From contig JBBRBD010000003.1 of assembly GCA_038206135.1 (NCBI GenBank), forward strand, positions 4,453 through 68,452: 64,000 nt of DNA, written 5' to 3'. Every line of letters starts with the position of its first letter. Position 1 is the stretch's first letter. The notes beneath the pieces were generated by a model. It saw nothing but the letters and a program-made list of their open reading frames with translations. It ran no database searches and had not been told where the DNA came from. The translations under genes and the position numbers were made by a program. This document shows positions 1-57,395 of this stretch, in pieces. This DNA is from Patescibacteria group bacterium (GTDB lineage Bacteria; Patescibacteriota; Microgenomatia; UBA8517).

Positions 1-3000
1 AATTCTCTTGTATTAGATGCAACAACATCAATCGCATTTGGAGCTTCAAATTACAATTTTACCTTTACAAACAATGGAACTGGAAATGAAATCCACAACC
101 TAAGTTCAACTGGAGACTTACTTATTCAAGATAACGGCACAACATTTGCAACATTTAACAATGCAGGTGGAATTGATTTCAGCCCAAATGGCACAAGTAA
201 CCTAACAATCAATACAGACAGCGACTCTGCGCTTAAAGTTACGGGACTCGCCTCAGGTTCCGGTTCAGCAATTTGTATTGATGGAAGTAACAATATCGTA
301 ACCTGTACGACAGGTTCGGGTGGGTTGTCAGGGAGCGGTACAAGCGGTCAAATTGCTTATTTCAATGGAGCAACATCTGCAACTTCAGAAGCTAGCGGTT
401 TCAGCTGGGACGCAACGAATAATAGACTTGGAATCGGAACGGATACACCAAACGCAGTTTTGCACGTAAGTAGCGCCTCGATCGGAAAAGCACTTGCAAT
501 ATTTAATGAAACAGGTGACCAAGATATATTGACAGCAAGTGCTTCAGGCACAACAGTTTTTACAGTGGCACGCACAGGCCAAATAACTGCTAGTTCATCT
601 ACTGCAAATGCTGATAGTATCAAAATATCTCCAAATGCATCAGGTTCTAACACTTTCACGGGTACACTAACATCAGCTGATTTAACTGGAAATGTTACCT
701 GGACTCTCCCCGACTCATCTGGCACAGTAATCCTTTCAGGACACACATTTACAGGGGATGTTACGGGAACACTCGGAGCTGGTGGAACAACAGCACTTAC
801 TATTGCCGCCGACTCTGTTGCTCTTGGAACTGATACAACTGGAAACTACATAGCAAGTATTACCGGCAACAGCCAAGTTGCAGTCAGCGGCTCAGGATCA
901 GAGTCTGCTGCCGTTTCCCTTTCCATCAATGGAAACTCGATTGATACCGTACAACTGGCAAGTACCTTAACTTTTTCAGATGGCGACCTAATTGATCTTT
1001 CTTCAATAAATACGAGCTCAACAGTTGAAGGCTTACTATTACCTCAGGCAACAAGTTGCAGTGCCGGAACTGCCGAGGGTCAGGTTTGTTGGGACACAGA
1101 TAATGACTTCCTTTCTGTTGGAACAGGAAGTGGAACAGTAGCATTACTTGGAAGCACAAGCTCGTTGTTTACGCTTGCCGCAACATCTGGCTCATCACAA
1201 ACAATAAGCGCTGGAGACACGGCAACCATTGCAGCGGGTACTGGTATTACAACAACAGCAGGATCAACAGATACAGTCACAATTGCAGCAACACTCGGAA
1301 CCTCTATTTCAAATGCAGAAATAGATGCAAACACAATTAATTGGGATTCAATTGCAGATGCGATGACTCTTGATGCAAACACGAGTATTACCGCAGCTAG
1401 TGCTCTCTCACTCACCATTGGAAATAATGTAACACTCACAACCAGTGGTACAGGATCAATTGTCGCAACAGATCTGAGTTGTACTGACTGTGTTGCTTTA
1501 GGATCTGAAACAACCGGGAACTATGTAGCAACAGTGACCGGCAATAGCCAAGTTGCGGTCAGCGGCTCTGGATCTGAATCAGCTGGAATTTCCCTTTCAA
1601 TAAATAACAACTCAATTGACACAGCGCAACTTGCAAGCACACTTACCTTCGCTGACGGTGATTTATTAGATCTTTCTTCGATTAACACAAGCTCAACAAC
1701 CGAAGGTTTAAAGCTTCCCCAAAATGCAACAGCCTGTTCGAGTGGAACAGCGGAAGGCCAGGTTTGTTGGGATAGCAGTACAGACACGTTATATATTGGC
1801 AACGGAACGAGCGCCACTGCAGTTGGAGGCGGATCATCATTTACGAGCTTTACAGCAGCTGGTGACAGTGGAAGTAATCAGACTATCTCAAACGGTAACA
1901 CATTGAGTGTGCTTGGCGGTTCAAATGGAATTGACACAGTCGGCTCTGCTACCGACACAATCACCTTGAATCTGGATACGACTGAAATTGGCTCAACTAC
2001 TTTTGGCACTGGATCTGCAATCACCTGGACCTTTGATGCGTCAGGAGGAACTGACACGACCATTGCATTTGGAAATGATACTCAGACTTTTACTGCAGGC
2101 ACAGCTGCTTTTAGCGGAACGGTAAATCTTTCAAGCGGTGTACTTCAAACTGGAGGCACACAACGATTAAGTAATGCTGGAGCCCTCAGCAACATTACCG
2201 GTTTTACACAAACAAGTGGATCTTTTAATTCAACACTTTCTACGACAAACGCGGCGACATTCAACTCAAGTACTGCAAATTCTGACAGTTTAGCGCTCCT
2301 TCCTCAATCAACCGTAAATACCAACAGCTTCACAGGGACAATTACAACAGTGGATCTTACCGCAGCACGTACATGGACACTTCCAGATGCAACCGGAACC
2401 GTGTGTTTAACAACAGGCAACTGTGCAGGCTCAGGAGGAGGAATTACTGGGTCTGGAACATCAGGTCAGATTGCATTTTTTAATGGAGCGGGAACAATAA
2501 CATCAGAGTCAACAGGTTTTTCTTGGGATGCGACAAATAAAAAACTAGGAATTGGAACAGATACTCCGAATGGACTACTTCAGGTAACAGGTGCAGCTGT
2601 TGGAAAGTCCCTTGCAATATTTAATGAAACTGGAGATCAGAACATATTGACGGCAAGCGCTTCTGGCACAACCGTTGCATCAATTGATAGAACCGGACAG
2701 ATTACTTTGAATACAACTACAGCAAATGCAGATAAACTCGCTCTTGTTGGTAATGCGACAGGTAGTAACTCGTTTACAGGCACAGTCACACCGACAGATC
2801 TTACTGCTAACAGAACATATACACTTCCAGACGCAACGGGTGACTTTTGTTTGAGTAGTGGAAACTGTGCCGGAGTTGGTGGAGTTGGAAATGTGAGTGG
2901 TCCAGGCTCTTCGACAGACAATGCAATTGCAAGGTTTGATTTAGCAACTGGAAAGATTATTAAAAACAGCGGTGTAATTATTGATAACTCAAACAACATT

Positions 3001-6000
3001 ACAGGAATAAATTCAATAGACACAATCTCGACGAGCGCAACTGCGCTTGGATTCGCAGGTGCTGGAACAATTACATCAACTGGAACAAGTGCACTCACCC
3101 TCGATTCAGGCACAACAGGGGTAGTTAATATTGCTACAGGAACCAGTGGCAAGACAATTAACATTGCAACGGACAATACAAATGCAGATACCATAAACAT
3201 TGGGTCAGCTCTCGACAGTGTCGCAGTTCTCGGAACAAGTACAATTACAGGGGCTACTACGGTAAATGGATCTGGTTCAGCCGCCACAAATATTGGAACT
3301 GGCACAAGTACCGGTACAATCACCATAGGTAGAGTCACTGGAACTGATCTTGCTTTGAATGATGCAAACTGGAATGTTACAGGAGCAGGCGCCGCGAACT
3401 TTGTTAGTTTTGGTGCAACAACTCCAGGCACTGGAGCATTCACGACCCTTTCTTCAACTGGTAACACAACAATCGGAGATGCAAACTCAGATACCTTAAC
3501 AATTAATGCAGGGAGTTCAGGGACAGGAATTATTCTTGCCGATACGAGCTTTGCAAATTGTTCTACCCTCTCAACAGTTTCAAACATAGTTACTTGTGGG
3601 GCAGCTGGAGGCAGTATGAGCAGTTTTACCGCTGCAGGCGACACAGGAACACCTCAAACAATATCAGACAGTAACACTCTCTCTATTGTCGGAGGGACAA
3701 ACGGTATCGACACAGTAGCAAGTGCAACAGATACTATTACATTAAATCTTGATACCACTGAGATTGGTTCAACTACATTTGGAACTGGAAGCGCTTCTAC
3801 TTGGACATTCGATGCTTCTGCTGGAACAGATACTACAATTGCTTTTGGAAATGATACACAAACATTTACAACAGGAACTGCGACCTTCACGGGAAACGTT
3901 GCAGTAAACGGTGGATCTTTAACTACAACTGCTAGTACCGCCACTTTATTTAACACAAATGCAGCGACGCTTTCAATTGGTGGTGCCTCCACTACAGCAC
4001 TTAACATTGGAACTGGAAACACTGCATACACTGCAATTAACTTGGGTACTGGAACTGGAGGAAACGCTATTAACATTGGAACAAACAACACAAATGCTGA
4101 CACCATTGGAATTGGAAGTGCACTTGATACCCTTACAATTGCTGGCACTACAGGGGTGACGGGTGCTACTACAATTAACGGGTCTGGTTCATCAGCCACA
4201 AATATCGGGACAGGAACCTCAACTGGAACTATTACGATTGGCAGAGTCACTGGAACAGACCTCGCTTTGAATGATGCAAACTGGAATATTACTGGAGCAG
4301 GTGCCGCGAACTTTGTTAGTGTTGGTGCAACAACTCCGGGCACTGGAGCATTCACAACGCTCTCTAGTACAGGAGCCACAACAATTGGAAACAATTCGTC
4401 TACAGTCGCGATTGACTCGACTTCATGGGATATTTCAAGTGCTGGTGTTGCTTCTGGATTTACAGGTCTCACTTCAAGCGGAACAATCAATTTTTCTGGG
4501 CTTACTGCTTCAAGTGGTGTGTATACCGATGGAAGTAAAAACTTAACATCAACAGCACCTACTTCTGGAACACTTGGATACTGGAGTAGAACTGGAACAA
4601 CACTTTCTCCTTCTAATGCGGGTGACGCTGTAACCACCACCGGAAACATTTCAACAACAAGTACTGGAACTATTACTTCAGCTGGACTTCTAACTGGACA
4701 ACTCGGACTCACGGCAAGTGGAGCTGCGATAAACTTAAACGCTGCAAGTAACTTTGTAACCAACATCAACACTGGTAGTTCAACTGGAAGTGTAACAATC
4801 GGTGGTGGTTCAAATGCACTTGCAACAAATTCAACAACACTTGATATGGCTGCAACAGGGGCTATTCAAATCAACTCATCGGCAGGAACAATTGGAATTG
4901 GTAACAATGCAGTTGCACAAGCTATTAACATTGGAACAGGAGCTGCAGCCAGAACAATTACCATAGGAAACAATACTGGTGCAAGTGCACTCGCCTTAAC
5001 TTCAGGAACTGGTTCTCAGTCTTTCACCAGTTCTGCAACCACAAATAATGCATTTGCATTTGTTGATAATGCGTTAACTTCAGCAAACTTATTGGCTTTG
5101 TCCTCCACTTCAACTGCACTTACGAGTGGAAAAATTGGCTCATTCGATTGGAGCCCGACAAGTGCAACAACTGCAACAGGAGACTTGTTTAATATAAACA
5201 TTGGAGCAAACGGAACAACAACTGGGAACATCTTCTCAGTATCTGACTCTGGGTCAAATCTCTTTACAGTTTCTGAAACGGGTATTACGGCAAATGTACC
5301 AGCATCATTTACCTCTGCAGGTGATGTCTCTATGGCGTATGACTTGCAATTTACAAATCAAACTGCAAGTTATATCAAAAGTAAAGCTCCCCTCTACATC
5401 GATACCGGAGAAAGTTTTGAGAGTAATGATCTAACACTGAGAACATATAATTCAGGAAAGATTGTCCTTGATAATGTAAGTGGTGGATATGCCACTTTAA
5501 GTTTTGCCACAAAAGCAACGACAGGTGACCCATCAACTTGTGCGATTGGAGATGTGTACTTTAATAGTACTGATGCCACAATCAAAGCTTGTACAACGGT
5601 AAACACATGGGCAACCCTTAATGGTGCCGCTGGTGGAACAATCACCGGATCTGGAACTACTGGAACACTTCCAAAATTCACAAGCGGAACTGCAATTGGT
5701 GACTCACTGATTTCTGAATCCGGATCAACAATTTCACTCAGTACAGCGGCAACAATCACTGCAAGTTCACTTGCTACATTTACAAGCTCAACGGCACTTA
5801 GTCTGAATCCAAATACAGGCACTTCATATACGCTCGGAACAACGGCAACAACATTGGATCTATTCAACGCAACACCAACAACTATCAACTTTGGCGGTGC
5901 AGCAACAACTGCCTTAAATATAGGTAACGGAAGTGGCGCATACACTGCAATTAACCTCGGTTCTGGAAGTGGCACACATACAATTAACATTGCAGGCACA

Positions 6001-8883
6001 GGTGCAACATCTGCAGACACAGTGAACATTGGAACAGGTGGAACTTCAGCCGATACTATTAACATTGGAGGCAATGCTTCAACAACTGCTTTGAACTTAA
6101 CATCAGGAACGGGCGCACAAACATTCAGGAGCTCTGTTGCAACTGGTACAACAACAAGTGCTGCTTGGGTATTTAATGATACTGCTTTGACTTCAGGAAC
6201 AGGTTTATATTTGACTTCTTCTGGTTCAAGTCAAACATCAGACAAGCTTGTCGACATCTCCCAGTCAGGAGTTACAACAGGGTTCACTGGTAACTTACTT
6301 AATCTTAATTCGACAAGCACAACGGGTGCAGCAACATTTATAAATCTTACGGCAAACGCTTCCACAGTTGGAACTGGAGAAAGTATTGCAATGAATGCGC
6401 TTACAACCGGTAAAGTGCTTGGGTTGAGTAGTAGCTCAACTGCAATCACAACTGCTGGCTCAAACATAGGCTCACTCCTCGACTTAACAGCAAGTGGTGC
6501 AATGACTGCATTTACTGGCTCAATTGCAAACATTAACGTCGCAAACGCAAGTAACGCAGGAGACACTGGAAACGCACTTAACATTAACCTTGGTGGCGCT
6601 GCTCAAATAATGAAAGCTCTAAACATTGCAGATGCTACAACTGGAAACCTTTCAACAACTGGTGCTGTTGCAATCAGTATGAGTGGCGCCCACACCGGAA
6701 CTGCAATCGCTGTCACAGATGCGACTGCTACTGGAAAAATCCAAACGCTTATCGGCAATAGTCTTACCTCGGGCACCGCAGTACAAATTAGTTCCACGGC
6801 AACCGGACTAACTACTGCAGGTTCAAATATTGGCTCGCTATTTGACATTACGGAAAGTGGTGCAATGACTGCTATGACTGGAAACATTGCAAACATAAAT
6901 CTTTCTGGAGCAAATGCTGTCGGTTCAACTGGAAACGCACTTAACATTAACATCGCAGGAACTGCGCAACTCATGAAAGGTATTAGCTTTACTGATGCAA
7001 CTACTGGAAACCTTGGAACAACAGCAGGTACCAGTGGTGGAGTGTTATTCTCATTTACAGGGGCACATACCGGATATGGACTTCAGGTTTCAGATGCAAC
7101 AGCAACTGGAACGGCATTTGCATTGAATGCAAACTCACTTACTTCTGGAGTCGGTCAAAGTATTCTCTCAACAGCAACTGGAGTAACATCAGGTAACTTA
7201 CTGAGCTCATCTCTGACTGGTGCATCTGCTTTTACCGGAAATCTTAATTATTTTGATTGGACTCCTGGAAGCTCAACAACTGCAACAGGAGATTTACTCC
7301 GTGTTCATATTGGAGCAAACGGATCAACAAGTGGATATCTATTCAATGTTGTAGATGATACAACTTCTGACTTCTCTGTTTCAGAAACACAAATCACCAG
7401 TGCGTTGCCACATCAGTTCACGGCAGCTGGTGACGTTTCAATGGCATACGATCTACAATTCACAAATCAAACTGCAAGCTATATTAAAAGTAATGCACCA
7501 CTCTACTTACAAGCTGGAGAGACGTTTGAAAACAACAATTTAACATTACAAACGTATGGAACGGGTGCCATAGTTTCAAGTGGTAAATTCTCATTCGGTT
7601 CGCAAAACACGCTTACTGCAAATAGCACTACCCCATCTGTAACTACTGGCGACTATTTTGTCACGGCAAATACATCCACTACACTTATTTCAAACTTCAC
7701 CAGTGGAACAGTGGGTCAAGAGATTTTTGTAAACATTGCCGATGCAAACACAGATTTTGATTGTACAAGTTCAAATATTGCTTGCGGAACTACAGATATC
7801 ACAACCCCTGCAAGCGGTGACATCCTACACTTTATCTATGATGGAACAAATTGGTCGCTCCTTGGCTGGATGCGAAATACAGCAAATAACAGTAACCCAA
7901 CAAACGGTGTTGACTTGGCAGAGTTCTATCCAAGTTCAGAATCACTTCAGGCTGCTGATGTAATTAGTGTAGATTCAACAAATCCAGTCACCATTAAAAA
8001 GGCTACAGATGCAGACGGTCAAAAGGTGTTTGGAGTAATTTCAACCCAGCCAGGGCTTATTCTCGGTGAAGATGCAGTGAACTCATATAAAGTTGCTCTT
8101 GCCGGACGGGTCCCAGTAGCAATCGATCCAGCTTCAGAGACAATTCAAGCTGGCGACCTGATTGGAGCCTCGAGTGTGTCAGGGAAAGCAAAGAAAGTAA
8201 CAAGCGGATATATCATCGGACGTGCCTTAGAGGCTTGGACCACAGGTTCGTCAAATCAACTAACAGTATTCGTGAATCCAATTTATGTGAACGGTGACTC
8301 AATTGATAACAGTCAGTTTGACTCTAGACTCACTACACTTGAGAACAATTTTGCTACGGTAAGCGCTTCACTCACCGCTTCAGCAAGTGGAGTGCTCGCA
8401 AACTTTAGTGATGTACATACAAATACTCTTTCAGTACTTGGAGACTCTACACTTTCTGATACAGTTATCAATGGTAAGTTGAATGTGGGAGCTATGGTAT
8501 TTGATAATGTAGATCAAAGTATCAATGCAATTGGCACTTTAAAGATTCAAAGCCTTGCACTTGGGAATATAGAGCTTGAAAATGGACTCGTTACGATTGA
8601 CACACTTGGTAATGTTGTAGTGAATACAATAACTGCTCAGAAGTACAAAGTAGCAGGAACTTCTGCAGGAACAAACACAATGGGCGCTGGTACCAACCAA
8701 GTTACTATAAATACAACTGCGGTCACTGCAAACTCGCTCATCTTTGTAACACCGAAGAAGACTATTGCTCACCCAATGGCTGTAACTCAGAAAGTAGATG
8801 GTACGAGCTTTACCGTTTCAATAAGCAGTATCGAACTGCAAGACATTGAATTCGACTGGTGGATAGTCGACAAGACTAACTGA
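1..8883 (+). CDS. Giant repetitive cell-surface protein, 5'-partial (>2,950 aa). Thr/Gly/Ser/Asn-rich and probably beta-helical or fibrous. Several internally duplicated ~100-130 aa modules plus a distinct C-terminal domain.
   Basis: The 325..8883 ORF begins at TTG, but the same frame stays open and compositionally identical back to nt 1, so the gene continues upstream of the window. Duplicated modules include SGQIA[YF]FNG...FSWDATN..LGIGTDTPN (nt ~325 and ~2447) and LG.[DE]TTGNY[IV]A..TGNSQVAVSGSGSES...TAEGQVCWD (nt ~820 and ~1495). Further pairs are SFTAAGD..QTIS...TITLNLDTTEIGSTTFGTGSA (nt ~1843 and ~3619) and VSMAYDLQFTNQTASYIKS.APLY (nt ~5330 and ~7440). There are paired Cys motifs (CLTTGNCAG). 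The protein has essentially no hydrophobic core segments and no LPXTG motif. Confidence 0.8.
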   Translation, partial: NSLVLDATTSIAFGASNYNFTFTNNGTGNEIHNLSSTGDLLIQDNGTTFATFNNAGGIDFSPNGTSNLTINTDSDSALKVTGLASGSGSAICIDGSNNIVTCTTGSGGLSGSGTSGQIAYFNGATSATSEASGFSWDATNNRLGIGTDTPNAVLHVSSASIGKALAIFNETGDQDILTASASGTTVFTVARTGQITASSSTANADSIKISPNASGSNTFTGTLTSADLTGNVTWTLPDSSGTVILSGHTFTGDVTGTLGAGGTTALTIAADSVALGTDTTGNYIASITGNSQVAVSGSGSESAAVSLSINGNSIDTVQLASTLTFSDGDLIDLSSINTSSTVEGLLLPQATSCSAGTAEGQVCWDTDNDFLSVGTGSGTVALLGSTSSLFTLAATSGSSQTISAGDTATIAAGTGITTTAGSTDTVTIAATLGTSISNAEIDANTINWDSIADAMTLDANTSITAASALSLTIGNNVTLTTSGTGSIVATDLSCTDCVALGSETTGNYVATVTGNSQVAVSGSGSESAGISLSINNNSIDTAQLASTLTFADGDLLDLSSINTSSTTEGLKLPQNATACSSGTAEGQVCWDSSTDTLYIGNGTSATAVGGGSSFTSFTAAGDSGSNQTISNGNTLSVLGGSNGIDTVGSATDTITLNLDTTEIGSTTFGTGSAITWTFDASGGTDTTIAFGNDTQTFTAGTAAFSGTVNLSSGVLQTGGTQRLSNAGALSNITGFTQTSGSFNSTLSTTNAATFNSSTANSDSLALLPQSTVNTNSFTGTITTVDLTAARTWTLPDATGTVCLTTGNCAGSGGGITGSGTSGQIAFFNGAGTITSESTGFSWDATNKKLGIGTDTPNGLLQVTGAAVGKSLAIFNETGDQNILTASASGTTVASIDRTGQITLNTTTANADKLALVGNATGSNSFTGTVTPTDLTANRTYTLPDATGDFCLSSGNCAGVGGVGNVSGPGSSTDNAIARFDLATGKIIKNSGVIIDNSNNITGINSIDTISTSATALGFAGAGTITSTGTSALTLDSGTTGVVNIATGTSGKTINIATDNTNADTINIGSALDSVAVLGTSTITGATTVNGSGSAATNIGTGTSTGTITIGRVTGTDLALNDANWNVTGAGAANFVSFGATTPGTGAFTTLSSTGNTTIGDANSDTLTINAGSSGTGIILADTSFANCSTLSTVSNIVTCGAAGGSMSSFTAAGDTGTPQTISDSNTLSIVGGTNGIDTVASATDTITLNLDTTEIGSTTFGTGSASTWTFDASAGTDTTIAFGNDTQTFTTGTATFTGNVAVNGGSLTTTASTATLFNTNAATLSIGGASTTALNIGTGNTAYTAINLGTGTGGNAINIGTNNTNADTIGIGSALDTLTIAGTTGVTGATTINGSGSSATNIGTGTSTGTITIGRVTGTDLALNDANWNITGAGAANFVSVGATTPGTGAFTTLSSTGATTIGNNSSTVAIDSTSWDISSAGVASGFTGLTSSGTINFSGLTASSGVYTDGSKNLTSTAPTSGTLGYWSRTGTTLSPSNAGDAVTTTGNISTTSTGTITSAGLLTGQLGLTASGAAINLNAASNFVTNINTGSSTGSVTIGGGSNALATNSTTLDMAATGAIQINSSAGTIGIGNNAVAQAINIGTGAAARTITIGNNTGASALALTSGTGSQSFTSSATTNNAFAFVDNALTSANLLALSSTSTALTSGKIGSFDWSPTSATTATGDLFNINIGANGTTTGNIFSVSDSGSNLFTVSETGITANVPASFTSAGDVSMAYDLQFTNQTASYIKSKAPLYIDTGESFESNDLTLRTYNSGKIVLDNVSGGYATLSFATKATTGDPSTCAIGDVYFNSTDATIKACTTVNTWATLNGAAGGTITGSGTTGTLPKFTSGTAIGDSLISESGSTISLSTAATITASSLATFTSSTALSLNPNTGTSYTLGTTATTLDLFNATPTTINFGGAATTALNIGNGSGAYTAINLGSGSGTHTINIAGTGATSADTVNIGTGGTSADTINIGGNASTTALNLTSGTGAQTFRSSVATGTTTSAAWVFNDTALTSGTGLYLTSSGSSQTSDKLVDISQSGVTTGFTGNLLNLNSTSTTGAATFINLTANASTVGTGESIAMNALTTGKVLGLSSSSTAITTAGSNIGSLLDLTASGAMTAFTGSIANINVANASNAGDTGNALNINLGGAAQIMKALNIADATTGNLSTTGAVAISMSGAHTGTAIAVTDATATGKIQTLIGNSLTSGTAVQISSTATGLTTAGSNIGSLFDITESGAMTAMTGNIANINLSGANAVGSTGNALNINIAGTAQLMKGISFTDATTGNLGTTAGTSGGVLFSFTGAHTGYGLQVSDATATGTAFALNANSLTSGVGQSILSTATGVTSGNLLSSSLTGASAFTGNLNYFDWTPGSSTTATGDLLRVHIGANGSTSGYLFNVVDDTTSDFSVSETQITSALPHQFTAAGDVSMAYDLQFTNQTASYIKSNAPLYLQAGETFENNNLTLQTYGTGAIVSSGKFSFGSQNTLTANSTTPSVTTGDYFVTANTSTTLISNFTSGTVGQEIFVNIADANTDFDCTSSNIACGTTDITTPASGDILHFIYDGTNWSLLGWMRNTANNSNPTNGVDLAEFYPSSESLQAADVISVDSTNPVTIKKATDADGQKVFGVISTQPGLILGEDAVNSYKVALAGRVPVAIDPASETIQAGDLIGASSVSGKAKKVTSGYIIGRALEAWTTGSSNQLTVFVNPIYVNGDSIDNSQFDSRLTTLENNFATVSASLTASASGVLANFSDVHTNTLSVLGDSTLSDTVINGKLNVGAMVFDNVDQSINAIGTLKIQSLALGNIELENGLVTIDTLGNVVVNTITAQKYKVAGTSAGTNTMGAGTNQVTINTTAVTANSLIFVTPKKTIAHPMAVTQKVDGTSFTVSISSIELQDIEFDWWIVDKTN
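3194..3478 (+). repeat. Intragenic repeat unit D1 inside the giant surface-protein gene (~85% nt identity to D2)
   Basis: Protein segment INIGSALDSVAVLGTSTITGATTVNGSGSAATNIGTGTSTGTITIGRVTGTDLALNDANWNVTGAGAANFVSFGATTPGTGAFTTLSSTGNTTIG. The DNA is almost the same as 4106..4390. Confidence 0.8.
4106..4390 (+). repeat. Intragenic repeat unit D2 (copy of D1)
   Basis: Protein segment IGIGSALDTLTIAGTTGVTGATTINGSGSSATNIGTGTSTGTITIGRVTGTDLALNDANWNITGAGAANFVSVGATTPGTGAFTTLSSTGATTIG. There are long runs of identical nucleotides shared with 3194..3478. Confidence 0.8.
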
Positions 8884-9207
8884 TAAATAGATATACTTCC
8901 TCAATATGAAGTAATGATCGATTTATATAAACAATGCAGTAACCACATACTTCGTCAGGTAGTTTGCATTAAGTATCATCACTTCATTTATCGAATGTAA
9001 CTTCTACCTACTGTTTTAGAATATAGTATTTTTAATACTTAGAATATCTTTATGTATATTAATATATAAAAGTATGCGAATCTATCTCAAAGTAACACAG
9101 GTCTGTTGTTGTCTTAAGATGCGTAAATTCAATGTTGTTGGTTGCTAACAATAGCTTAATTACAAAAAATGCTAACACTGAGAACTTCTCTATCCAATAA
9201 TAGTACT

Positions 9208-9233
9208 CCCCGGACTCACGTCCGGGGTTTCTT
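9208..9233 (+). terminator. Rho-independent terminator: 8-bp GC stem CCCCGGAC/GTCCGGGG, 4-nt loop, TTTCTT tail
   Basis: Read directly in the sequence: ccccggac tcac gtccgggg tttctt. It lies ~325 nt downstream of the giant gene's stop. The T-tract is on the plus strand only, so the terminator is unidirectional. Confidence 0.6.
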
Positions 9234-10367
9234 GAATAACATCATTCGAATTCAAGCCTAGATTGTTTTGGGAGTTCTTCTTTCCCTTGATATTCAATAT
9301 ATCGGCGGAACAACTCCTCGTTGAGGCAAATGGTAAAAGAAAAGTATCCAACACTCCAAATACTCCTCTCCAGATACATACGCCGAATGAATGGGTATCT
9401 CTCATTCAGTGCTCGGCACTTTAAATCTTCAGGAGCAAAGCTTATCGAATATTAAAACACTCAAATGACGAATAAGGTTTTTAATAACATAGATATCTAT
9501 AGAATGAAACCAAAACTCTCAAGGCTGCCTCTTTAGAAGAAAAAAACCAATATGAATTGGGAAAGCAAAAAAAGTATACAAGAATAGTATGCATACACAA
9601 AAGATATGAAGTTTCAAAAATTGTGAAAATTAAATATTTTTATAATCTTTGGGGTTTATTGTTTAAAGAAATATACTTGAGCACCTCACTTTTTTTAATT
9701 TTTGATAAATTTCAAGTAAATTAAAAAAAAACAGGCTTCACAAAATGCGTTTTAAGATACTTGTTTTTACATATATGAGTGGTTAGTCGTTTCAGTAAAT
9801 GCGAAAATTTGAATAATTCGAACCTACAGCTCCATTCAACGAATTGTCTCGACAAGAATTTACTACTCAAATTAATCAATAGCAATCGCTAGTCAAAGAT
9901 AAACTCAAAATGCCCAATATTTATTTCCAGTAATACAAATTCTCATATATTCAGACTGCTAGATACTGGGTATTTGATTGATTTCCAACGAGGGTCGTCA
10001 AAATAATTCATACCTAATTCAAGAAAAGATGTATACAGAAAAACACAAACACTTTTATTACCCAGAGAGGCTCAAGTCCCCGAACTGCAGCCACAATACT
10101 GAAAACAGTGTCGCTTTTGCGAGCTGAAACGTCATGTGAAGTATAAATTAAAAACAAACTTCTTATTAAATCTATTGATTGAAATTTTTTAGAAAATACT
10201 TTTTATTACTCAATCTTACAATTAAATTCGATAAAATAGGTGTTAGACGACAAATACAAATATATTAAATTTAGACAGGATTCGTGCTTGGACAGGTTTG
10301 CGTTTTTCCTGTATCTTTTAAGTGAGGACATTGCTCCTCTGGTTTTGTTTGGAAGAAAAATCTTTCT

Positions 10368-13300: not shown

Positions 13301-14831
13301 GGTAACAGGAACTATTCCAACGTCACTCGTTTCATCGACCACTTCAAATTTTAAGCTTGGGCAAGGTGATGACACAACACCAACGGCATTAATTTCATAT
13401 ATTGATGAACTAAAAATCTATACTTCAGCGCTTACCGCAGATCAAGTTAAAATCGAAGCGCAATATGGAAGCACTATAGACTTTGGCACAGGACAGAATG
13501 AAACTACACAAATTACCGGAACAGCAGAAACTGGTCCAATTCTATATCTTCCGCTTGATGAAAATACGGGAACTACTGCTGCAGACAAAAGTGGAAACGG
13601 TTTGAATGGAACACTTACAAACGGTCCTGTTTGGTCGCTCGGAAAAATTGGAGAGGCTGTTTTCTTTGACGGCTCAAATGATCAAATTCAAGTTTCACAC
13701 AATTCTCTCCTAAATGTAGTGACTGGCTATACTGTTGAAGGATGGGTGAAACCTACTGCTGGTAATGGATCATATCGAGATATTCTGGTAAAAGGGATAG
13801 ATACTGCTGGCGGCGAAACATCTACTTTTTATATGCAGATTACTGACACAAATCAATTTGAAGGAGGTCACAAAGCAAACACCTTTTTCAGATATGCGGA
13901 CTCGACGACAACTGCAAGTTTAAACACTTGGTACCATGTCACCATTACGAATAACAGTAGTAACACGAGTGTCAAAATATATATCAATGGAAAACTGGAG
14001 GCAACAACAGCATATACAACAGACGCACCACTCACTCAAAGCAGTCCTTTATTAATTGGGGTTGGAAATGGTTCCAATTATAGACCATTTACTGGATATA
14101 TTGATGATATTAAGGTCTATAACTACGAACGAACACCTGCACAAGTTGCATATGATTACAATCGTGGTGCACCTATCGGGTGGTGGAAATTTGATGAAGG
14201 CAATGGGACTATTTCAAATGATTCATCTGAAAACAGTTATACTGGCACGCTGACAGGGACTCCTTCATGGGTTGATGGCAAGTTTAACACTGGAATCAGC
14301 TTAAACGGCAGTAGTCAGTACTCAACTGTTACTGATGCTGCAAATATTCGATTTGATAGCGCAACTCAAAATTTTTCTGTGTTTGCATGGGTGAAACGGG
14401 CTGCAACAGGATCTGAAATGGACATTGTGAGCAAGGAAGATGCAGACAATGATGGATATCGACTTGAATTTACAAGTGGAAACATTGTTCGTTGTAGTGC
14501 AAATAGCACAGACGTGGATAGCACTGCTACGATTACAGATACGACTACTTGGCATCTGGTTGGTTGCAGTATGAACAGAAGTGGAACCGGGCAAATATAT
14601 ATTGATGGATATCCTTCTGGAACAGCCACCTCAATTAGTGCAATTACCATGTCCACAACGGCAAATATTTTAATAGGTGCCCGCTCATATACCACCGCGA
14701 ATTACTTTAATGGAACAATTGATGGTGTACGGCTCTATAATTACGCGCTTACATTGTCACAAATCAAAAAACTTTATAATGAAGGTTCAAGCGTTCGTTT
14801 TGGACCAACACAAGGAACTCCAGCGCCATGA
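10368..14831 (+). CDS. Membrane-anchored surface protein with an N-terminal DUF2341-like domain followed by ~7 tandem Laminin_G_3 (ConA-like lectin/glucanase) domains
   Basis: There is an N-terminal TM helix (IGIFLIAILLPVIILSLY). After it comes WTYRMKVPI...CGDIRF...GNPTVANGF, which is DUF2341-like. The LamG_3 hallmark then repeats: GYWQFDE..GTT..D.SGNGN.GT at the start of each unit and [IL]DD[VI][RK][VI]YN[YR]..[ST]..Q[VI] at the end. Confidence 0.75.
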   Translation: MSDYPKSLNITKHFLKLIKKVHLRTWIGIFLIAILLPVIILSLYKSQSSQAAWFDDGWTYRMKVPITAHTGAETNKYFSVTVDTSDTTKFQADCGDIRFLNSSGDLLNYYISSGCSSASTIIHVLVPSFPAGASNYYMYYGNPTVANGFSSSDFSAGTGITVGTVGSEEKGTGPILYWSMDEGYGTTTYDSTSNRNNGTLTGAWESEQYCVTGKCIFLSNSSTQGLGTATVSPLSKLTSGSVSIWAKYTGVNRYQDIFNLYRGADTTATGFELNFDNRTSGGVNIKGTASKDGSLKWEFTVASADFNAITETNKWHLYTLVHDGTTPSLYIDGKPINITFTTTTDKTVWFKAFLTDATSKADTLAIGLVVANNTPFNPATAFFDDFKIYPYARSATQLKADYISRGTNEGVSAQFGNTDQKYLSDGLVAYWKFDESSSTASDSSGNGLTLTNNGTTPYTDGKFGNAPTYNGSTRYFSTATTISGVQSVSFWTYPGSTTDNFINLASGVYVSASGGTLSATGFTNPTIYVNGVQTTTIAASVWQYITITTSSSISGSAVNIGRANSTVAVNNSRTDDVRFYNRILSAQEVSKLYNWAPGPIGYWQFDENTGTTLHDASGNGNGATITDTANVGKWTSGQYGSAYDMEGNETSDVMALDNTIDLGTRNTIAYWVYFVNSTNSPVIGGNYSTTEGYMSYRESTTLYSRPGTGVSAASVSYTTAINTWYHIEVVRDNTSIKFYVNGIQAGSTQTLDANPNFTLYSLTNYVTGVTNYPLEGRLDDVRVYNYPRSSQQVIEDMNGGHPAGGSPLGSQIMYWKLDEQNGNTINNSGFGTSTYNGTNSGATWLQNNSCKVNGCLYFDTTTDSVSAGDVAYIDGLTGFTTSFWLNPQTLATNKMIVSKANTTTQRVFQIKTDDTTAAKLKVMISSSAADTSNYCVTASSVLSASTWQHVTVVYDGTATTGNDQRVKVYVNGAPTSCTVTGTIPTSLVSSTTSNFKLGQGDDTTPTALISYIDELKIYTSALTADQVKIEAQYGSTIDFGTGQNETTQITGTAETGPILYLPLDENTGTTAADKSGNGLNGTLTNGPVWSLGKIGEAVFFDGSNDQIQVSHNSLLNVVTGYTVEGWVKPTAGNGSYRDILVKGIDTAGGETSTFYMQITDTNQFEGGHKANTFFRYADSTTTASLNTWYHVTITNNSSNTSVKIYINGKLEATTAYTTDAPLTQSSPLLIGVGNGSNYRPFTGYIDDIKVYNYERTPAQVAYDYNRGAPIGWWKFDEGNGTISNDSSENSYTGTLTGTPSWVDGKFNTGISLNGSSQYSTVTDAANIRFDSATQNFSVFAWVKRAATGSEMDIVSKEDADNDGYRLEFTSGNIVRCSANSTDVDSTATITDTTTWHLVGCSMNRSGTGQIYIDGYPSGTATSISAITMSTTANILIGARSYTTANYFNGTIDGVRLYNYALTLSQIKKLYNEGSSVRFGPTQGTPAP

Positions 14832-17800
14832 GTAAAAAGTCATTTTTCAAGTCTCACCTTTCAAAAGTTAAACTACGTACATATGTTGCACTGGGATTAT
14901 TATTTATATTACTTCCCGTTATACTTATTTCCCTTTTTAGACCACAAAACTCGACTGCTACATGGATGGATGACTCATGGACATACAGAATAAAAGTTCC
15001 AGTAACTGCACACACAGCAGTTGAAACGAATAAATATTTTACCAAAACTGTAGACACGAGTGACACGACAAAGTTTCAATCAGATTGTGGAGACATACGC
15101 TTCACTGATGCAAATGGAAAAGTTTTGCAATATTACATTGCTTCTGGATGTAGTAGTGCTTCAACTGTTGTTCATGTACTAGTTCCCTCTTTCCCAGCAG
15201 GAGCATCGGACTACTATATGTATTATGGTAATGTAACCGCTGCAAACGGCTTTAGCTTAAGTGACTTTACGGCCGGAAGTGCAGTGACTGTAGGAAGTGT
15301 GGGAGGTGAAGAAAAAGGAACTGGGCCAATTTCCTATTGGAGTATGGATTCAGGAACTGGAACAACTGCCTATGATTCACAAAACGTAAACAATGGCACC
15401 TTTGGCGCAAGTACTGCCGCTCCAACTTGGCAAACAGAAGACATGTGTGTAAGCGGAAAGTGTATATACTTTGATGGCAGTAATGACTATATAGAAAAAA
15501 CTTCTGCAAAAAACCTCCCATTAGGAGCGACTCCTCGAACGGTTGAAGCTTGGGTAAGATACAACGGAAGTATTGCCTATCAATATATTTTGGCTTACGG
15601 GACACAAAGTAACGGGAATTGGTTTGGATTAGCAATCGAGTCAACAGGGAAAATATATATAGATACCTGGTCAAATGACACACCAGGAACAGCAACCACG
15701 ATTAATGACAATAAGTGGCATCATGTTGCAGCAACATACAATGGCAGTACTTCAGTTAGTTTCTATGTCGATGGAAATTTTGTTGAAACGGACAGTATTT
15801 CCGCTCCAGCAAACACAACCGGAACAACATTGCGAATTGGGAGTTCTACTTCAAATGACTATTTTTTGAAAGGTTATATTGACGAACCAAAAATTTACAA
15901 TTATGCAAAAACCGCTGCTCAAATAAAAGCCGCATATAACTCAAAAGGCTCAAATGAAGGTGCGACATCAACCGTTGGTAATGCTAATCAAAAGTTTCTA
16001 TCAGATGGACTCGTTGGATATTGGAAAATGGATGAAAGTAGTTGGACAAACAATTGTTCAGCTACCTCTGTTACTGATAGTTCAGGAAACGGAAACAACG
16101 CAAAAGCATGCCCTGCCTCAACCGGCCCGACAGGTGCCGCAGTTGGGAAATTTGGTAATGCAGGAAGTTTTGATGGTTCTGATGATTATGTTGAGGTTCC
16201 AAACACAACAAACATCCATCCCGGCGACACTTTCACACTCGCAGCCTGGGTAAAACGAAGCTCAACTGGCACATTTGATGCAATCTTTGGAACTGCTACA
16301 AATGATTTCCAACTCGCGTTTGTCAATGACAATATAAAGCTTTCAAAACAATCAAGTAGTGATGTTTTTGTCAGTACGAGTACATACACAGATACAACAA
16401 GTTGGCACCAAATTGTTGCAGTCAAAAATGGTTCTCAATTTGCAAAAGTATATTACGATGGAGTCGAGATTGCAGGAACATTCACAAATCAAACAATATC
16501 AGCGGGTTCATCGTCTGTTTACATCGGTGGGGATTCTGTTTCAAATGATGTTTTTGCAGGTTCCATTGATGAGGCTCGTATATACAATAGGGCACTTTCA
16601 GCCCAGGAAGTTCGTAAACTGTACATTTGGGCTCCAGGGCCAGTGGGTTATTGGAATCTAGATGAAAAAACTGGAACTACTGCCTCAGATACAAGCAGCA
16701 ATAATAATACGGGGACATTAACCAATGGCCCCACGTGGAGTTCTGGAAAGTTTGGCTCAAGCGTTTCATTTGATGGTGTCGATGATGTAGTCGATGCTGG
16801 ATCTGGGTCAACCCTTGATGACATGCCTGCCATGACTCTTGAAGCATGGATTTATACAAGGTCGCTCGGCGGTGGTGGATTAGGTCGTATTATGGAAAAA
16901 CAATCGAGTGTCACTGATAACGGTTTTAGATTCCAATTAAATACAAGTAATGCCATTATTTTTAGTCAAGATTACTCGACAACAGATATTAGTCATGCAA
17001 CTGCAACTAATGTTTTCGCACTTAATACATGGCAACATGTGACGGCTACCTGGGATGGGTCCGCTACTGCACAAAATATTCATATTTATGTTAACGGTGT
17101 TGAGGTTTCTTCTTATATAACAACAACAAACGGTTCGGGATCCCGAGTAACAGATGCTGCGCAAAACCTTCGCATTGGTAATACAAATAATGGATCAAGA
17201 GGCTTTGATGGAATGATTGACGATGCTCGGATTTACAATTATGTTCGTACTCAATCTCAAGTTATTGAAGATATGAATGCAGGTCATCCAACTGCTGGAG
17301 GTTTTGTCGGTTCATACACTTCATATTGGAATATGGATGAGTCGAATGGAACAACAGCACATGACAGTAACAGCACACTTGCAAATGACATCACGCTTTC
17401 AACCTCCTCATGGAATCTTTCAGGAAAAACAAATAGTGCATGGAACGGGGTTGGAACAAATTGGCTCTCTCGCGCTGATGATGATGATTTTGATTTCACC
17501 GCCTCAGATAACTTGTCTATCTCTTTGTGGTTTAAATCTGACTCAGCAAGTAATCCCGGAACGACGGAATATTTACTAGATAAATCCTTGTCAGGTGCTG
17601 TTCAAGCCGCCGGATATGCGATCTACGCAAAAACGAGTGGTTTGGTATGTTTTGGTATTGATGATGACACAACCTGGTCCCCGGGCGATGAGGCATGCAG
17701 TACCAGTGATATATATGATGCAACTTGGCACCACATAGTGGTAACTAAAACCGGTACCAGCGAAATTCGAATATACGTCGATGGTTTAAGTAGTGGATCT

Positions 17801-19321
17801 GACATTTCACTCGCCACAACAGGAACATTGACTAACTCAAAAATTTTATATCTTGGTGATCGCGATGGCGTGGACAACAGTGATGAATTTAATGGAGACA
17901 TTGATGAAGTAAAAATATATCGTTCAGTATTAACTCAGGACCAAGTTTTACTGGATATGAATGCGGGCTCTTCACAAAATTTTGGTGTTACTGCATTAAC
18001 AGAAGCATCACAGTTTTTAGATGGCGCTGGTAACTCACCTGTCGGGTATTGGAATTTGGATGAAAAAACTGGCACATCCGCAAATGATAAAAGTGGAAAT
18101 GAAAACACTGGAACACTTAACAATACCCCTACTTGGGGATCCAGTCAGATGTGTAAAACAGGTTCTTGTCTCTCATTCGTAAGTAGTAGTAGCCAAGATG
18201 TGACGGTCAGTACTACTATTTCAGGAGTAAAAACTGTTTCCTTTTGGGTCTATCCCACCTCCACAACGTCAAGCATCTTACAACTTCAGGCAACAGGCGC
18301 AGTTGCAATTACGGCCAGTAGTGGAACAATTTCATTTACTGGTTTTACCTCACCGACAAAATATATAAATGGTGTGCAATGTACATCTTGTACGCTTACC
18401 GCAAACACTTGGCAATACATTACCGTTACGACGGGTACCTCAATTAGTGCATCACAAATTAAGTTTGGGCATTCGAATAGTACCTATTTTGACGGCAGAA
18501 TTGATGATATAAAATTCTACGACTACGCCAGAACACAGTCCCAAGTGTCATATGATTATAACCGGGGCTTACCAACAGGCTGGTGGCAATTTGATGAATG
18601 CCAAGGCTCAACAGCATATGACAATAGCGGAAATGGAAATAACGCTACTCTGACATATGGTGGCGGAACATACACTCAAACGGGAACATGCAATTCAGGA
18701 ACTTCGTCAGATGCGTGGTTCGGAGGGGTGAGCGGAAAATTCAATAGTTCACTTGCCATGGACACAACAACTGATACGATTAGTGTCGGAGATATTAGCA
18801 TGTATGCATTTGACCGCAGCAACGCCTTTTCTCTTTCTGCTTGGGAAAAAACCACAACAAATGGTGCTGCGACACTTATTTCTAAACAAGACAGTAGCGC
18901 TCCTTTCACTGGTTGGAATATGCAAACTGGTTCAAATGGATTTGTCTATCTTCAATTGGTAAACACCTATAGCACCAATGCACTCGAAGTTCACAGCACA
19001 AACGACGTGAATTATTACGATGGAAATTGGCATCTAATTACCATGACATATGACGGCTCAAGTACTGATGCAGGTGTAAAAATTTACATGGATGGAAATG
19101 CAGTGCCAACGACCGCTTCATTCACCAGTACTCTTGCCTCAGCTATTACAAATTCTATATCTGTGTATATAGGGTCTAGAAATGCAGTTGGACAGAAATT
19201 TGGTGGACAGCTGGACGACGTCCGAATCTACAACTATGTTTTGTCTGCCACACAAGCTAAACAGATATATTCCGGTAATGGCGGTGCTGTGTTCTATGGT
19301 CCACCTACGGGCCAGCCTTGA
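14828..19321 (+). CDS. Paralog of the upstream gene: TM anchor + DUF2341-like domain + ~7 Laminin_G_3 domains
   Basis: The N-terminus is nearly superimposable on 10368..14831 (WTYRIKVPVTAHTAVETNKYFTKTVDTSDTTKFQSDCGDIRFTD...). LamG_3 end motifs repeat (IDEARIYNRALSAQEV, IDDARIYNYVRTQSQV, LDDVRIYNYVLSATQA). The start ATG overlaps the upstream stop (ATGA), indicating translational coupling. Confidence 0.75.
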   Translation: MSKKSFFKSHLSKVKLRTYVALGLLFILLPVILISLFRPQNSTATWMDDSWTYRIKVPVTAHTAVETNKYFTKTVDTSDTTKFQSDCGDIRFTDANGKVLQYYIASGCSSASTVVHVLVPSFPAGASDYYMYYGNVTAANGFSLSDFTAGSAVTVGSVGGEEKGTGPISYWSMDSGTGTTAYDSQNVNNGTFGASTAAPTWQTEDMCVSGKCIYFDGSNDYIEKTSAKNLPLGATPRTVEAWVRYNGSIAYQYILAYGTQSNGNWFGLAIESTGKIYIDTWSNDTPGTATTINDNKWHHVAATYNGSTSVSFYVDGNFVETDSISAPANTTGTTLRIGSSTSNDYFLKGYIDEPKIYNYAKTAAQIKAAYNSKGSNEGATSTVGNANQKFLSDGLVGYWKMDESSWTNNCSATSVTDSSGNGNNAKACPASTGPTGAAVGKFGNAGSFDGSDDYVEVPNTTNIHPGDTFTLAAWVKRSSTGTFDAIFGTATNDFQLAFVNDNIKLSKQSSSDVFVSTSTYTDTTSWHQIVAVKNGSQFAKVYYDGVEIAGTFTNQTISAGSSSVYIGGDSVSNDVFAGSIDEARIYNRALSAQEVRKLYIWAPGPVGYWNLDEKTGTTASDTSSNNNTGTLTNGPTWSSGKFGSSVSFDGVDDVVDAGSGSTLDDMPAMTLEAWIYTRSLGGGGLGRIMEKQSSVTDNGFRFQLNTSNAIIFSQDYSTTDISHATATNVFALNTWQHVTATWDGSATAQNIHIYVNGVEVSSYITTTNGSGSRVTDAAQNLRIGNTNNGSRGFDGMIDDARIYNYVRTQSQVIEDMNAGHPTAGGFVGSYTSYWNMDESNGTTAHDSNSTLANDITLSTSSWNLSGKTNSAWNGVGTNWLSRADDDDFDFTASDNLSISLWFKSDSASNPGTTEYLLDKSLSGAVQAAGYAIYAKTSGLVCFGIDDDTTWSPGDEACSTSDIYDATWHHIVVTKTGTSEIRIYVDGLSSGSDISLATTGTLTNSKILYLGDRDGVDNSDEFNGDIDEVKIYRSVLTQDQVLLDMNAGSSQNFGVTALTEASQFLDGAGNSPVGYWNLDEKTGTSANDKSGNENTGTLNNTPTWGSSQMCKTGSCLSFVSSSSQDVTVSTTISGVKTVSFWVYPTSTTSSILQLQATGAVAITASSGTISFTGFTSPTKYINGVQCTSCTLTANTWQYITVTTGTSISASQIKFGHSNSTYFDGRIDDIKFYDYARTQSQVSYDYNRGLPTGWWQFDECQGSTAYDNSGNGNNATLTYGGGTYTQTGTCNSGTSSDAWFGGVSGKFNSSLAMDTTTDTISVGDISMYAFDRSNAFSLSAWEKTTTNGAATLISKQDSSAPFTGWNMQTGSNGFVYLQLVNTYSTNALEVHSTNDVNYYDGNWHLITMTYDGSSTDAGVKIYMDGNAVPTTASFTSTLASAITNSISVYIGSRNAVGQKFGGQLDDVRIYNYVLSATQAKQIYSGNGGAVFYGPPTGQP

Positions 19322-53943: not shown

Positions 53944-57395
<3,452 letters not shown>

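Follow-up and report, generated by a model that had tools for sequence, protein, structure and literature searches.

Bacteria of the Candidate Phyla Radiation (CPR), or Patescibacteria, are mostly uncultured epibionts, and their partner recognition is largely unknown. A stretch of 64,000 nucleotides (nt) from a Patescibacteria group bacterium (assembly GCA_038206135.1, contig JBBRBD010000003.1, positions 4,453 to 68,452; the whole stretch is hereafter called the window) begins inside a giant gene with a repetitive body, and raises the question of what kind of protein this gene encodes, how old its internal repeats are and what its non-repetitive C-terminus does. The computational analysis described here indicates that the product is probably a giant trimeric surface fibre, encoded in the chromosome of a Microgenomates/Woesebacteria-like Patescibacteria bacterium, anchored in the membrane and ending in a chaperone of the phi29 gp12 type. 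A conserved chromosomal giant fibre with the assembly machinery of phage tail spikes would be a concrete candidate for the element responsible for CPR partner recognition. The features that carry this reading are the following (aa, amino acids):

1..8883, plus strand: giant fibre-protein gene, 3′ part, 2,960 codons and a stop codon, with the 5′ end beyond the window
7633..7905 (aa ~2545-2635), plus strand: small non-repeated domain directly before the predicted cleavage site, aligning with the C-terminal ends of the small proteins P0035-P0037
7912..7923, plus strand: predicted autocleavage motif D2638-L-A-E2641, with the cut between V2637 and D2638; D and E invariant in alignment A2; aligns with residue 1 of 3gqh_A
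7912..8295 (aa 2638-2765), plus strand: auto-chaperone core of the phi29 gp12 / Peptidase_G2 type, from the AlphaFold2 (AF2) fold, Foldseek, profile and tblastn
8308..8370 (aa ~2770-2790), plus strand: predicted helix (DSSP helix 170-190 of the AF2 model)
8371..8880, plus strand: terminal domain, its last ~75 aa a K1-lyase_C-like beta-sandwich (Pfam match at aa 2888-2944)

In the alignment of homologues a conserved G-x-D-[LI]-A-E-[FWY] motif precedes a beta-rich domain, after which come a helix and a terminal domain that is likewise conserved. In the window protein the non-repetitive C-terminus opens at this motif (D-L-A-E-F), which is present in the fibre protein as a single copy. In A2, an alignment and profile of eight sequences comprising the window protein and its closest homologues (D38 and E41 there correspond to D2638 and E2641), both residues are invariant and are aligned to D1 and E4 of 3gqh_A, so that D2638 occupies the position of D692, with which the released phi29 gp12 fragment begins (‘DFAEYFE’). 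The mature form of the phage protein, gp12*, ends at residue 691 (PMC6542822), and the chaperone domain D4 of Dpo31 starts at Asp664 and is lost on expression (PMC13317679).

The AF2 model of the cassette has a mean pLDDT of 74, with block means of 84-96 for residues 41-160 and 92-96 for residues 291-350. The top matches of this model in a Foldseek search of the PDB were pre-mature phi29 gp12 (3suc, E 1.5e-4) and the released fragment 3gqh_A (E 2.8e-4, prob 1.0). Among viral models the best matches were ‘preneck appendage protein’ entries (best E 4e-10), one of which (E 1.3e-9) aligns with the cassette at a root-mean-square deviation of 2.0 over 132 columns. When the A2 profile was compared with PDB sequences, 3gqh_A (E 2.6e-4) and the Dpo31 ‘chaperon domain D4’ (E 1.4e-3) were found, and tblastn gave alignments of 37% identity, beginning at D38, with structural proteins of PA5oct-like jumbo phage virions. 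PF11962 (Peptidase_G2) itself is carried by the homologues P0007, P0014 and P0028. The initial annotation had described the C-terminus as non-repetitive and possibly chaperone-like or anchoring; the last ~325 aa are indeed non-repetitive, and by profile and fold their first part is chaperone-like, of the phi29 gp12 auto-chaperone type.

Behind this core the predicted helix is likely to serve as a trimeric coiled-coil linker to the terminal domain, the most conserved part of the family (55-76% identity among relatives). The last residues score 34.6 bits with PF24146 (K1-lyase_C; cut-off 27), the match covering aa 288-344 of the 360-aa query; the same model is precomputed on the homologues P0003 and P0005-P0007, and fold matches of the domain include the Pam1 tailspike, K64-1 depolymerase and K1 lyase. 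In P0009 and P0011 the same terminal domain is preceded by a Peptidase_S74 domain in place of the G2-type domain, as though one chaperone type had been exchanged for another within a single family. No match to Peptidase_S74 (PF13884) was obtained for the window protein in the Pfam search.

Homologues of the C-terminal 360 aa are Patescibacteria proteins. The related loci analyzed here (L001-L019) come mainly from Woesebacteria, Daviesbacteria, Doudnabacteria, Moraniibacteria, Saccharibacteria and unclassified Patescibacteria metagenome-assembled genomes; two are labelled Micavibrio and several ‘uncultured Gammaproteobacteria’, the latter label being suspected to be wrong at least for the 0.81-Mb chromosome of L004. 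In these loci the cassette match forms the end of open frames of 2,061 to >3,694 aa. A profile search of 1.84 billion representatives gave 25,477 proteins at E ≤1e-3, of which 1,619 reached E ≤1e-30, and in the top matches, proteins of up to 5,727 aa, the cassette stands at or near the C-terminus.

The full-length proteins of L003, L004, L005 and L014 start with a MerR-type helix-turn-helix (HTH) domain (PF00376, E 1e-10 to 1e-15), followed by a linker of ~100 aa and a hydrophobic, transmembrane (TM)-like segment. This HTH/TM region lies at 794-1360 of L003 and is found likewise in the library proteins P0158, P0159, P0258 and others; at least 33 of the 62 library matches of ≥1,500 aa begin with the MerR-type HTH architecture, and a crude scan of the library matches detected an N-terminal TM-like segment in less than half. 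Since the 5′ end of the window gene lies outside the window, its N-terminal architecture has to be inferred from these relatives and probably consists of a MerR-type HTH and an anchor that spans the membrane. The N-terminal TM-like segment of the four full-length relatives makes a C-terminal anchor, as considered in the initial annotation, unlikely, although the last ~170 aa may have an anchoring role. A cytoplasmic DNA-binding domain on the same chain as a giant extracellular fibre is an unusual combination. No description of the HTH-TM-fibre-chaperone architecture for CPR/Patescibacteria was found in the searchable literature, and the family is apparently very large and undescribed.

The gene start had been placed at nt 325, which is merely the first start-like codon (TTG) printed by the open reading frame (ORF) lister. 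By ORF analysis of the window, frame 1 is stop-free from nt 1 to the stop codon at 8881-8883, and residues 1-116 of the window protein already match the giant proteins of relatives, so the gene must begin outside the window. Neither the gene nor the contig was present in the protein database searched (best match there 52% identity) or among GTDB genomes, and a 44-nt probe from the start of the window had no match in JGI metagenomes. Long minus-strand ORFs lie inside the fibre gene, e.g. 2637-3644 and 3654-4772; they are taken to be by-products of biased codon content.

The body preceding the cassette was analyzed by self-blastn on nt 1-8883 and, at the protein level, by blastp with chunked queries of the fibre protein. 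Six module pairs had been claimed in the initial annotation and all were recovered near the places given there, with 69-75% nt identity and E values of 1e-23 to 1e-63:

346-616 / 2464-2734, plus strand: pair A, 70% nt identity
811-1094 / 1486-1772, plus strand: pair B, 73% nt identity
1846-2105 / 3622-3881, plus strand: pair C, 71% nt identity
3135-3477 / 4047-4389, plus strand: pair D, 75% nt identity
5143-5436 / 7252-7545, plus strand: pair E, 69% nt identity
6437-6659 / 6800-7022, plus strand: pair F, 72% nt identity

A seventh, short self-blastn match joins 4024 and 5938. The chunked blastp extended the pairs to modules of 83-200 aa with 50-84% aa identity and added at least eight weaker repeat relations, among them third copies of half of A, of the segment formed by the end of B and the start of C, and of the start of D. 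The modules are arranged as follows, the second copies and the third copies of A and D being defined by self-blastn and chunked blastp unless another basis is given:

349..738 (aa 117-246), plus strand: module A copy 1, with a ...LGIGTDTPN... motif, 66% aa identity to copy 2 (E 5e-51)
811..1284 (aa 271-428), plus strand: module B copy 1, its last ~70 aa common to pelagiphage tail-fibre tips
1486..1968 (aa 496-656), plus strand: module B copy 2, its end overlapping the start of C copy 1
1831..2079 (aa 611-693), plus strand: module C copy 1, 83-84% aa identity to copy 2, synonymous sites saturated
2215-2427, plus strand: third copy of the C-terminal half of module A
2467..2856 (aa 823-952), plus strand: module A copy 2
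3085..3510 (aa 1029-1170), plus strand: module D copy 1, with short ...INIGT...-type solenoid-like repeats
3607..3855 (aa 1203-1285), plus strand: module C copy 2
3991..4419 (aa 1331-1473), plus strand: module D copy 2
4993..5466 (aa 1665-1822), plus strand: module E copy 1, with the core ...DLQFTNQTASYIKS...
5833-6156, plus strand: third, partial copy of module D
6184..7311 (aa ~2062-2437), plus strand: module F, a tandem array of 3-4 units with a period of ~121 aa
7135..7575 (aa 2379-2525), plus strand: module E copy 2, defined also by its match to relatives

Repeat relations span 1,849 of the 2,960 visible residues (62%). The segment at the end of B and the start of C is present three times (aa 360-428, 586-656 and 1178-1248), and the blastp copies of module F cover aa 2119-2318 and aa 2240-2437. 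A self dot-plot (BLOSUM, threshold above three shuffles) displayed the same off-diagonals as blast and none in the last ~430 aa. The description of the protein as a mosaic rather than a simple tandem array holds for the whole protein; it fails for the sixth pair, F, which is itself tandem with a period of ~121 aa.

The modules of the window gene recur in relatives at other positions, in other orders and in other copy numbers. L003 contains three matches to module C and L002 two; module E, the best conserved body module among relatives, is found twice in each of L001, L003 and L004. In pairs A, C, D and F a copy is closest to its partner in the same gene; for B, E and G (the last being the pair made by the C-terminal half of A) a copy from another genome comes closer than the partner to one or both of the copies. 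Neighbour-joining trees were noisy; in them the E copies cluster within the genome for L001, L003 and L004, a pattern that fits either concerted evolution or repeated duplication. Dispersed intragenic repeats of their own, mostly with 68-86% nt identity, were present in 11 of the 12 relatives examined (none in L017), and therefore the module mosaic is a trait of the family. Module shuffling among relatives is evident, and since module orders and numbers differ between relatives, the length and composition of the fibre evolve by duplication, loss and shuffling of modules; the repertoire shows how both may vary.

The fibre body consists of threonine, glycine, serine, alanine and asparagine to 65% and contains few charged residues. 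Its 18 cysteines form nine local pairs, 3-17 residues apart (aa 92-2595, nt 274-7785), often at module junctions as in C-x-x-G-N-C, which suggests disulfide-stapled loops and would fit an extracellular protein. Searches with the whole protein and nine segments gave only chance-level Pfam matches at E ≤10 and no Ig-like, cadherin, RTX, SLH or sortase features. A weak PHROG tail-fibre match was seen for the fibre protein. The B-end/C-start segment is 57-58% identical over 70 aa to the C-terminal tips of putative pelagiphage tail fibres, namely the 401-aa fibres of HTVC034P (57% to the end of module B copy 1) and of a uvMED phage; some of the matched fibres carry a PF03906 domain. The proposed kinship to phage receptor-binding fibres thus gains support from this 57% identical segment. 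A tblastn search of 50,697 phage records with modules A-C gave no match.

In the mechanism that we propose the body is a chain of 70-200-aa modules drawn from a family-wide repertoire, each in two to four old copies. The protein would be exported with an N-terminal signal-anchor, and the C-terminal cassettes of three chains, the last parts to emerge, would associate and nucleate the C-to-N folding of the trimeric fibre. The cassette (323 aa) would then be self-cleaved before D2638, as predicted from the motif, which would leave the domain at aa ~2545-2635 exposed at the distal end, where it would probably bind a ligand. Given that CPR bacteria live as epibionts, the mature fibre is likely to contact a host cell or a surface glycan. 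A further, rather doubtful extension is that the four parts in one polypeptide (MerR DNA-binding domain, membrane span, fibre and auto-chaperone) would constitute a contact-sensing transcription switch of epibiotic CPR bacteria, in which binding or loss of the fibre would be passed to the HTH, e.g. by regulated proteolysis as in MYRF or ToxR-like systems. If true, contact sensing would have been built from domesticated phage host-recognition hardware.

Several observations weigh against a trimeric fibre with a gp12-type chaperone. The matches to gp12 are remote (E ~1e-4, 16-18% identity in the PDB), and PF11962 is not matched by the window protein, hmmscan of its C-terminal 360 aa at E ≤10 returning PF24146 alone; membership in the gp12 auto-chaperones is supported by profile, fold and motif, the Pfam model not being reached. 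Beyond the chaperone stand ~170 highly conserved residues, unlike in phage auto-chaperones. The body (whole protein and nine segments) has no significant Pfam, PHROG or NCBIfam match, and phmmer of the body against PDB sequences found only chance matches to RNase Sa (E 0.4). Because no match accounts for the body, the trimeric fibre nature rests only on the C-terminal chaperone and the phage-fibre likeness of one segment. The AF2 monomer model of aa 2379-2640 (the second E copy and the tip) is of low to moderate confidence (pLDDT 66.5); its Foldseek matches, the N-terminus of CBA120 TSP4 and the Mu fibre-chaperone complex, were not significant (E ~0.01, template modelling score ~0.2) and were not used.

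The same observations leave some room for a monomeric repeat adhesin or S-layer-associated protein with a cassette that does not cleave and serves e.g. for cell-wall or S-layer anchoring or as a secretion/sorting signal. A body without a recognized trimeric-fibre family would suit such a protein, as would the high conservation of the last ~170 aa and their persistence where the chaperone is swapped for Peptidase_S74 (P0009, P0011), which suggests that the terminal domain has an independent function. We nevertheless regard this alternative as unlikely: the D-x-x-E motif is invariant among close homologues and aligns exactly with the gp12 cleavage product, the relatives are anchored at the N-terminus, and Pfam searches found no Ig-like, cadherin, SLH or sortase motif. 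That the gene is instead a tail-fibre gene of a phage or prophage within a bacterial contig is very improbable, even though the phage-type chaperone, the K1-lyase_C domain, the weak PHROG match and the similarity to pelagiphage fibres all point in that direction. No phage genes were found among the 10 large window ORFs scanned; the window holds instead genes for arginyl- and leucyl-tRNA synthetases (ArgRS, LeuRS), a P-type ATPase, an M16 peptidase and a Wzy_C/TPR protein, 23S and 5S rRNA genes and two tRNA-Ala genes. Gene order is kept in several Patescibacteria genomes; Woesebacteria UBA5941 (L002) has the fibre, LamG, GH16-like, orf154, M16 and ArgRS genes in the succession found in the window, its ArgRS being 62% identical. 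Shared downstream gene order and cellular genes in the window mark the fibre gene as a conserved chromosomal locus and no prophage; moreover, the fibres of relatives are joined to an HTH and a TM segment at the N-terminus, and the protein has at least 3,000 aa versus the 401 aa of the pelagiphage fibres matched.

Two further explanations concern the repeats alone. In the initial annotation the gene was seen as rapidly evolving and recombination-prone, and pair D was thought to be recent, with long runs of identical nucleotides. In this view the repeats would reflect a contingency gene that diversifies fast by active recombination, through recent duplications and gene conversion. The differences in module order and number between relatives, the within-genome clustering of E copies and an intragenic pair of 208 nt in L005 (5738-5945 versus 6635-6842), 96% identical, speak for such a gene; other members of the family, though not the window gene, have undergone gene conversion or recent duplication. 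Here the proportion of synonymous differences (pS, Nei-Gojobori) is 0.62-0.77 in every pair, giving synonymous divergence (dS) from 1.3 to infinity, i.e. saturated, with ratios of nonsynonymous to synonymous divergence (dN/dS) of 0.14-0.30; pair A has dS 2.1 and dN/dS 0.14. Pair D is the least diverged, by a slight margin, and is not recent (dS 1.29, 71-75% nt identity), its longest identical run of 24 nt, the longest in any pair, being equalled in pair F. Saturated dS, low dN/dS and identical runs of ≤24 nt show that the module duplications are old and have been maintained by purifying selection. The copies in the window gene are too diverged for efficient homologous recombination, and together with the copies of B, E and G that are nearer to those of other genomes than to their own partners these values make a contingency gene decidedly improbable and leave rapid evolution of the window gene unsupported. 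Apart from the general risk attached to metagenome assemblies, nothing favours collapse or expansion of repeats as an artefact of assembly: the copies differ at 25-42% of nucleotides, which makes such an error very unlikely, the frame is intact over 8.9 kb, and independently assembled relatives show the same kind of repeats, so that the probability left to this explanation is negligible. A trimeric, membrane-anchored fibre with old modules and a gp12-type chaperone remains the reading that we prefer and consider probable.

The fibre gene is followed in the window by these features:

9208..9227, plus strand: strong terminator-like GC hairpin with a run of T behind it, 325 nt past the fibre stop codon
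10368-14831 and 14828-19321, plus strand: two tandem paralogues of ~1,490 aa each, overlapping by 4 nt, with an N-terminal TM helix, DUF2341 and 5-6 LamG (Laminin_G_3) domains
19353-22016, plus strand: GH16-like protein of 887 aa, secreted-looking, with a weak GH16 match (E 8e-6), kept downstream of the LamG genes in UBA5941 (L002)
32495-34522, plus strand: Wzy_C (O-antigen-ligase-like) and TPR protein, with homologues near the fibre locus in L005, L006, L012 and L017
53911-57389, minus strand: 23S rRNA gene, 3,479 nt versus the 2,925-nt model
54919-55373, minus strand: group-I-intron-like insertion in the 23S gene, 36 bits, below the gathering score of 50 (E 8.5e-7)

The tandem DUF2341/LamG genes stand 3′ of the fibre gene in the window, as they do in seven or more related genomes, the giants lying directly downstream of it in the relatives’ loci, and their products are probably functional partners of the fibre on the cell surface. 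The Wzy-like neighbour, shared with some relatives, hints at a glycan-related surface gene neighbourhood. The spacer between the fibre and the first LamG gene (8884-10367, 1.48 kb, 31% GC) contains no ORF >71 aa; it resembles neither the loci of relatives nor any other part of the window, matches no Rfam family at the gathering score, and is replaced in relatives by just ~50-170 nt. Within the window no 16S gene adjoins the tRNA-Ala/23S/5S unit.

Intragenic duplications are ordinary for giant surface proteins, and here they are old. The new elements are the identity given to the C-terminal cassette, the cleavage site predicted for it and the fusion of HTH and TM segment in relatives. Giant repeat adhesins of the Bap/RTX/Big-domain type are large, act at the surface and arise with intragenic module duplication, and the window protein resembles them in size, in module duplication and probably in its surface role. 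It differs from them in its dispersed modules without long tandem arrays, in its phage-type end cassette and in having no Ig-like, cadherin, RTX or sortase features. With the T7-type fibres of HTVC034P-like pelagiphages it shares the C-terminal tip, as the segment present three times; those are 401-aa virion proteins, some with PF03906, and the sharing is limited to this one segment.

The closest counterparts of the cassette are gp12, the pre-neck appendage or tailspike of phi29 (PF11962; 3suc, 3gqh), and D4 of Dpo31 from the marine podovirus Carin-1, which have the same fold as aa 2638-2765 of the window protein. As in gp12, a D-x-A-E-aromatic motif stands where the chaperone fragment begins, and the domain is C-terminal to a beta-rich receptor-binding protein; by analogy its expected role would be trimerization, folding and self-removal. 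Unlike gp12, the window protein is cellular, has at least 3,000 aa and is probably membrane-anchored and HTH-fused; its domain is compact and lacks ~45 aa that are inserted in gp12; a helix and ~170 conserved residues come after it, and its sequence similarity is below the reach of the Pfam model. By Pfam and fold the last ~60-75 aa resemble the K1-lyase_C sandwiches of the Klebsiella phage K1 lyase (7w1c), K64-1 S2-4 and the cyanophage Pam1 tailspike (7eea). In those phage proteins, judged by the Pfam name and fold alignments, the sandwich appears to end the mature spike, whereas that of the window protein comes after the predicted cut and would be shed together with the chaperone. Neither a lyase nor a beta-helix catalytic domain could be detected in the window protein.

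Endosialidase, T5 pb1 and MYRF carry Peptidase_S74 domains, which are C-terminal self-cleaving trimerization chaperones of fibrous proteins. The same C-terminal chaperone logic applies to the window protein, some homologues of which carry S74; the S74 fold and catalytic dyad are different, and the window protein itself lacks an S74 match. MYRF joins a DNA-binding domain, a membrane span and a phage-derived chaperone, as the fibre family appears to do. Cleavage of MYRF frees its DNA-binding part, whereas cleavage of the window protein would free only the extracellular C-terminal piece.

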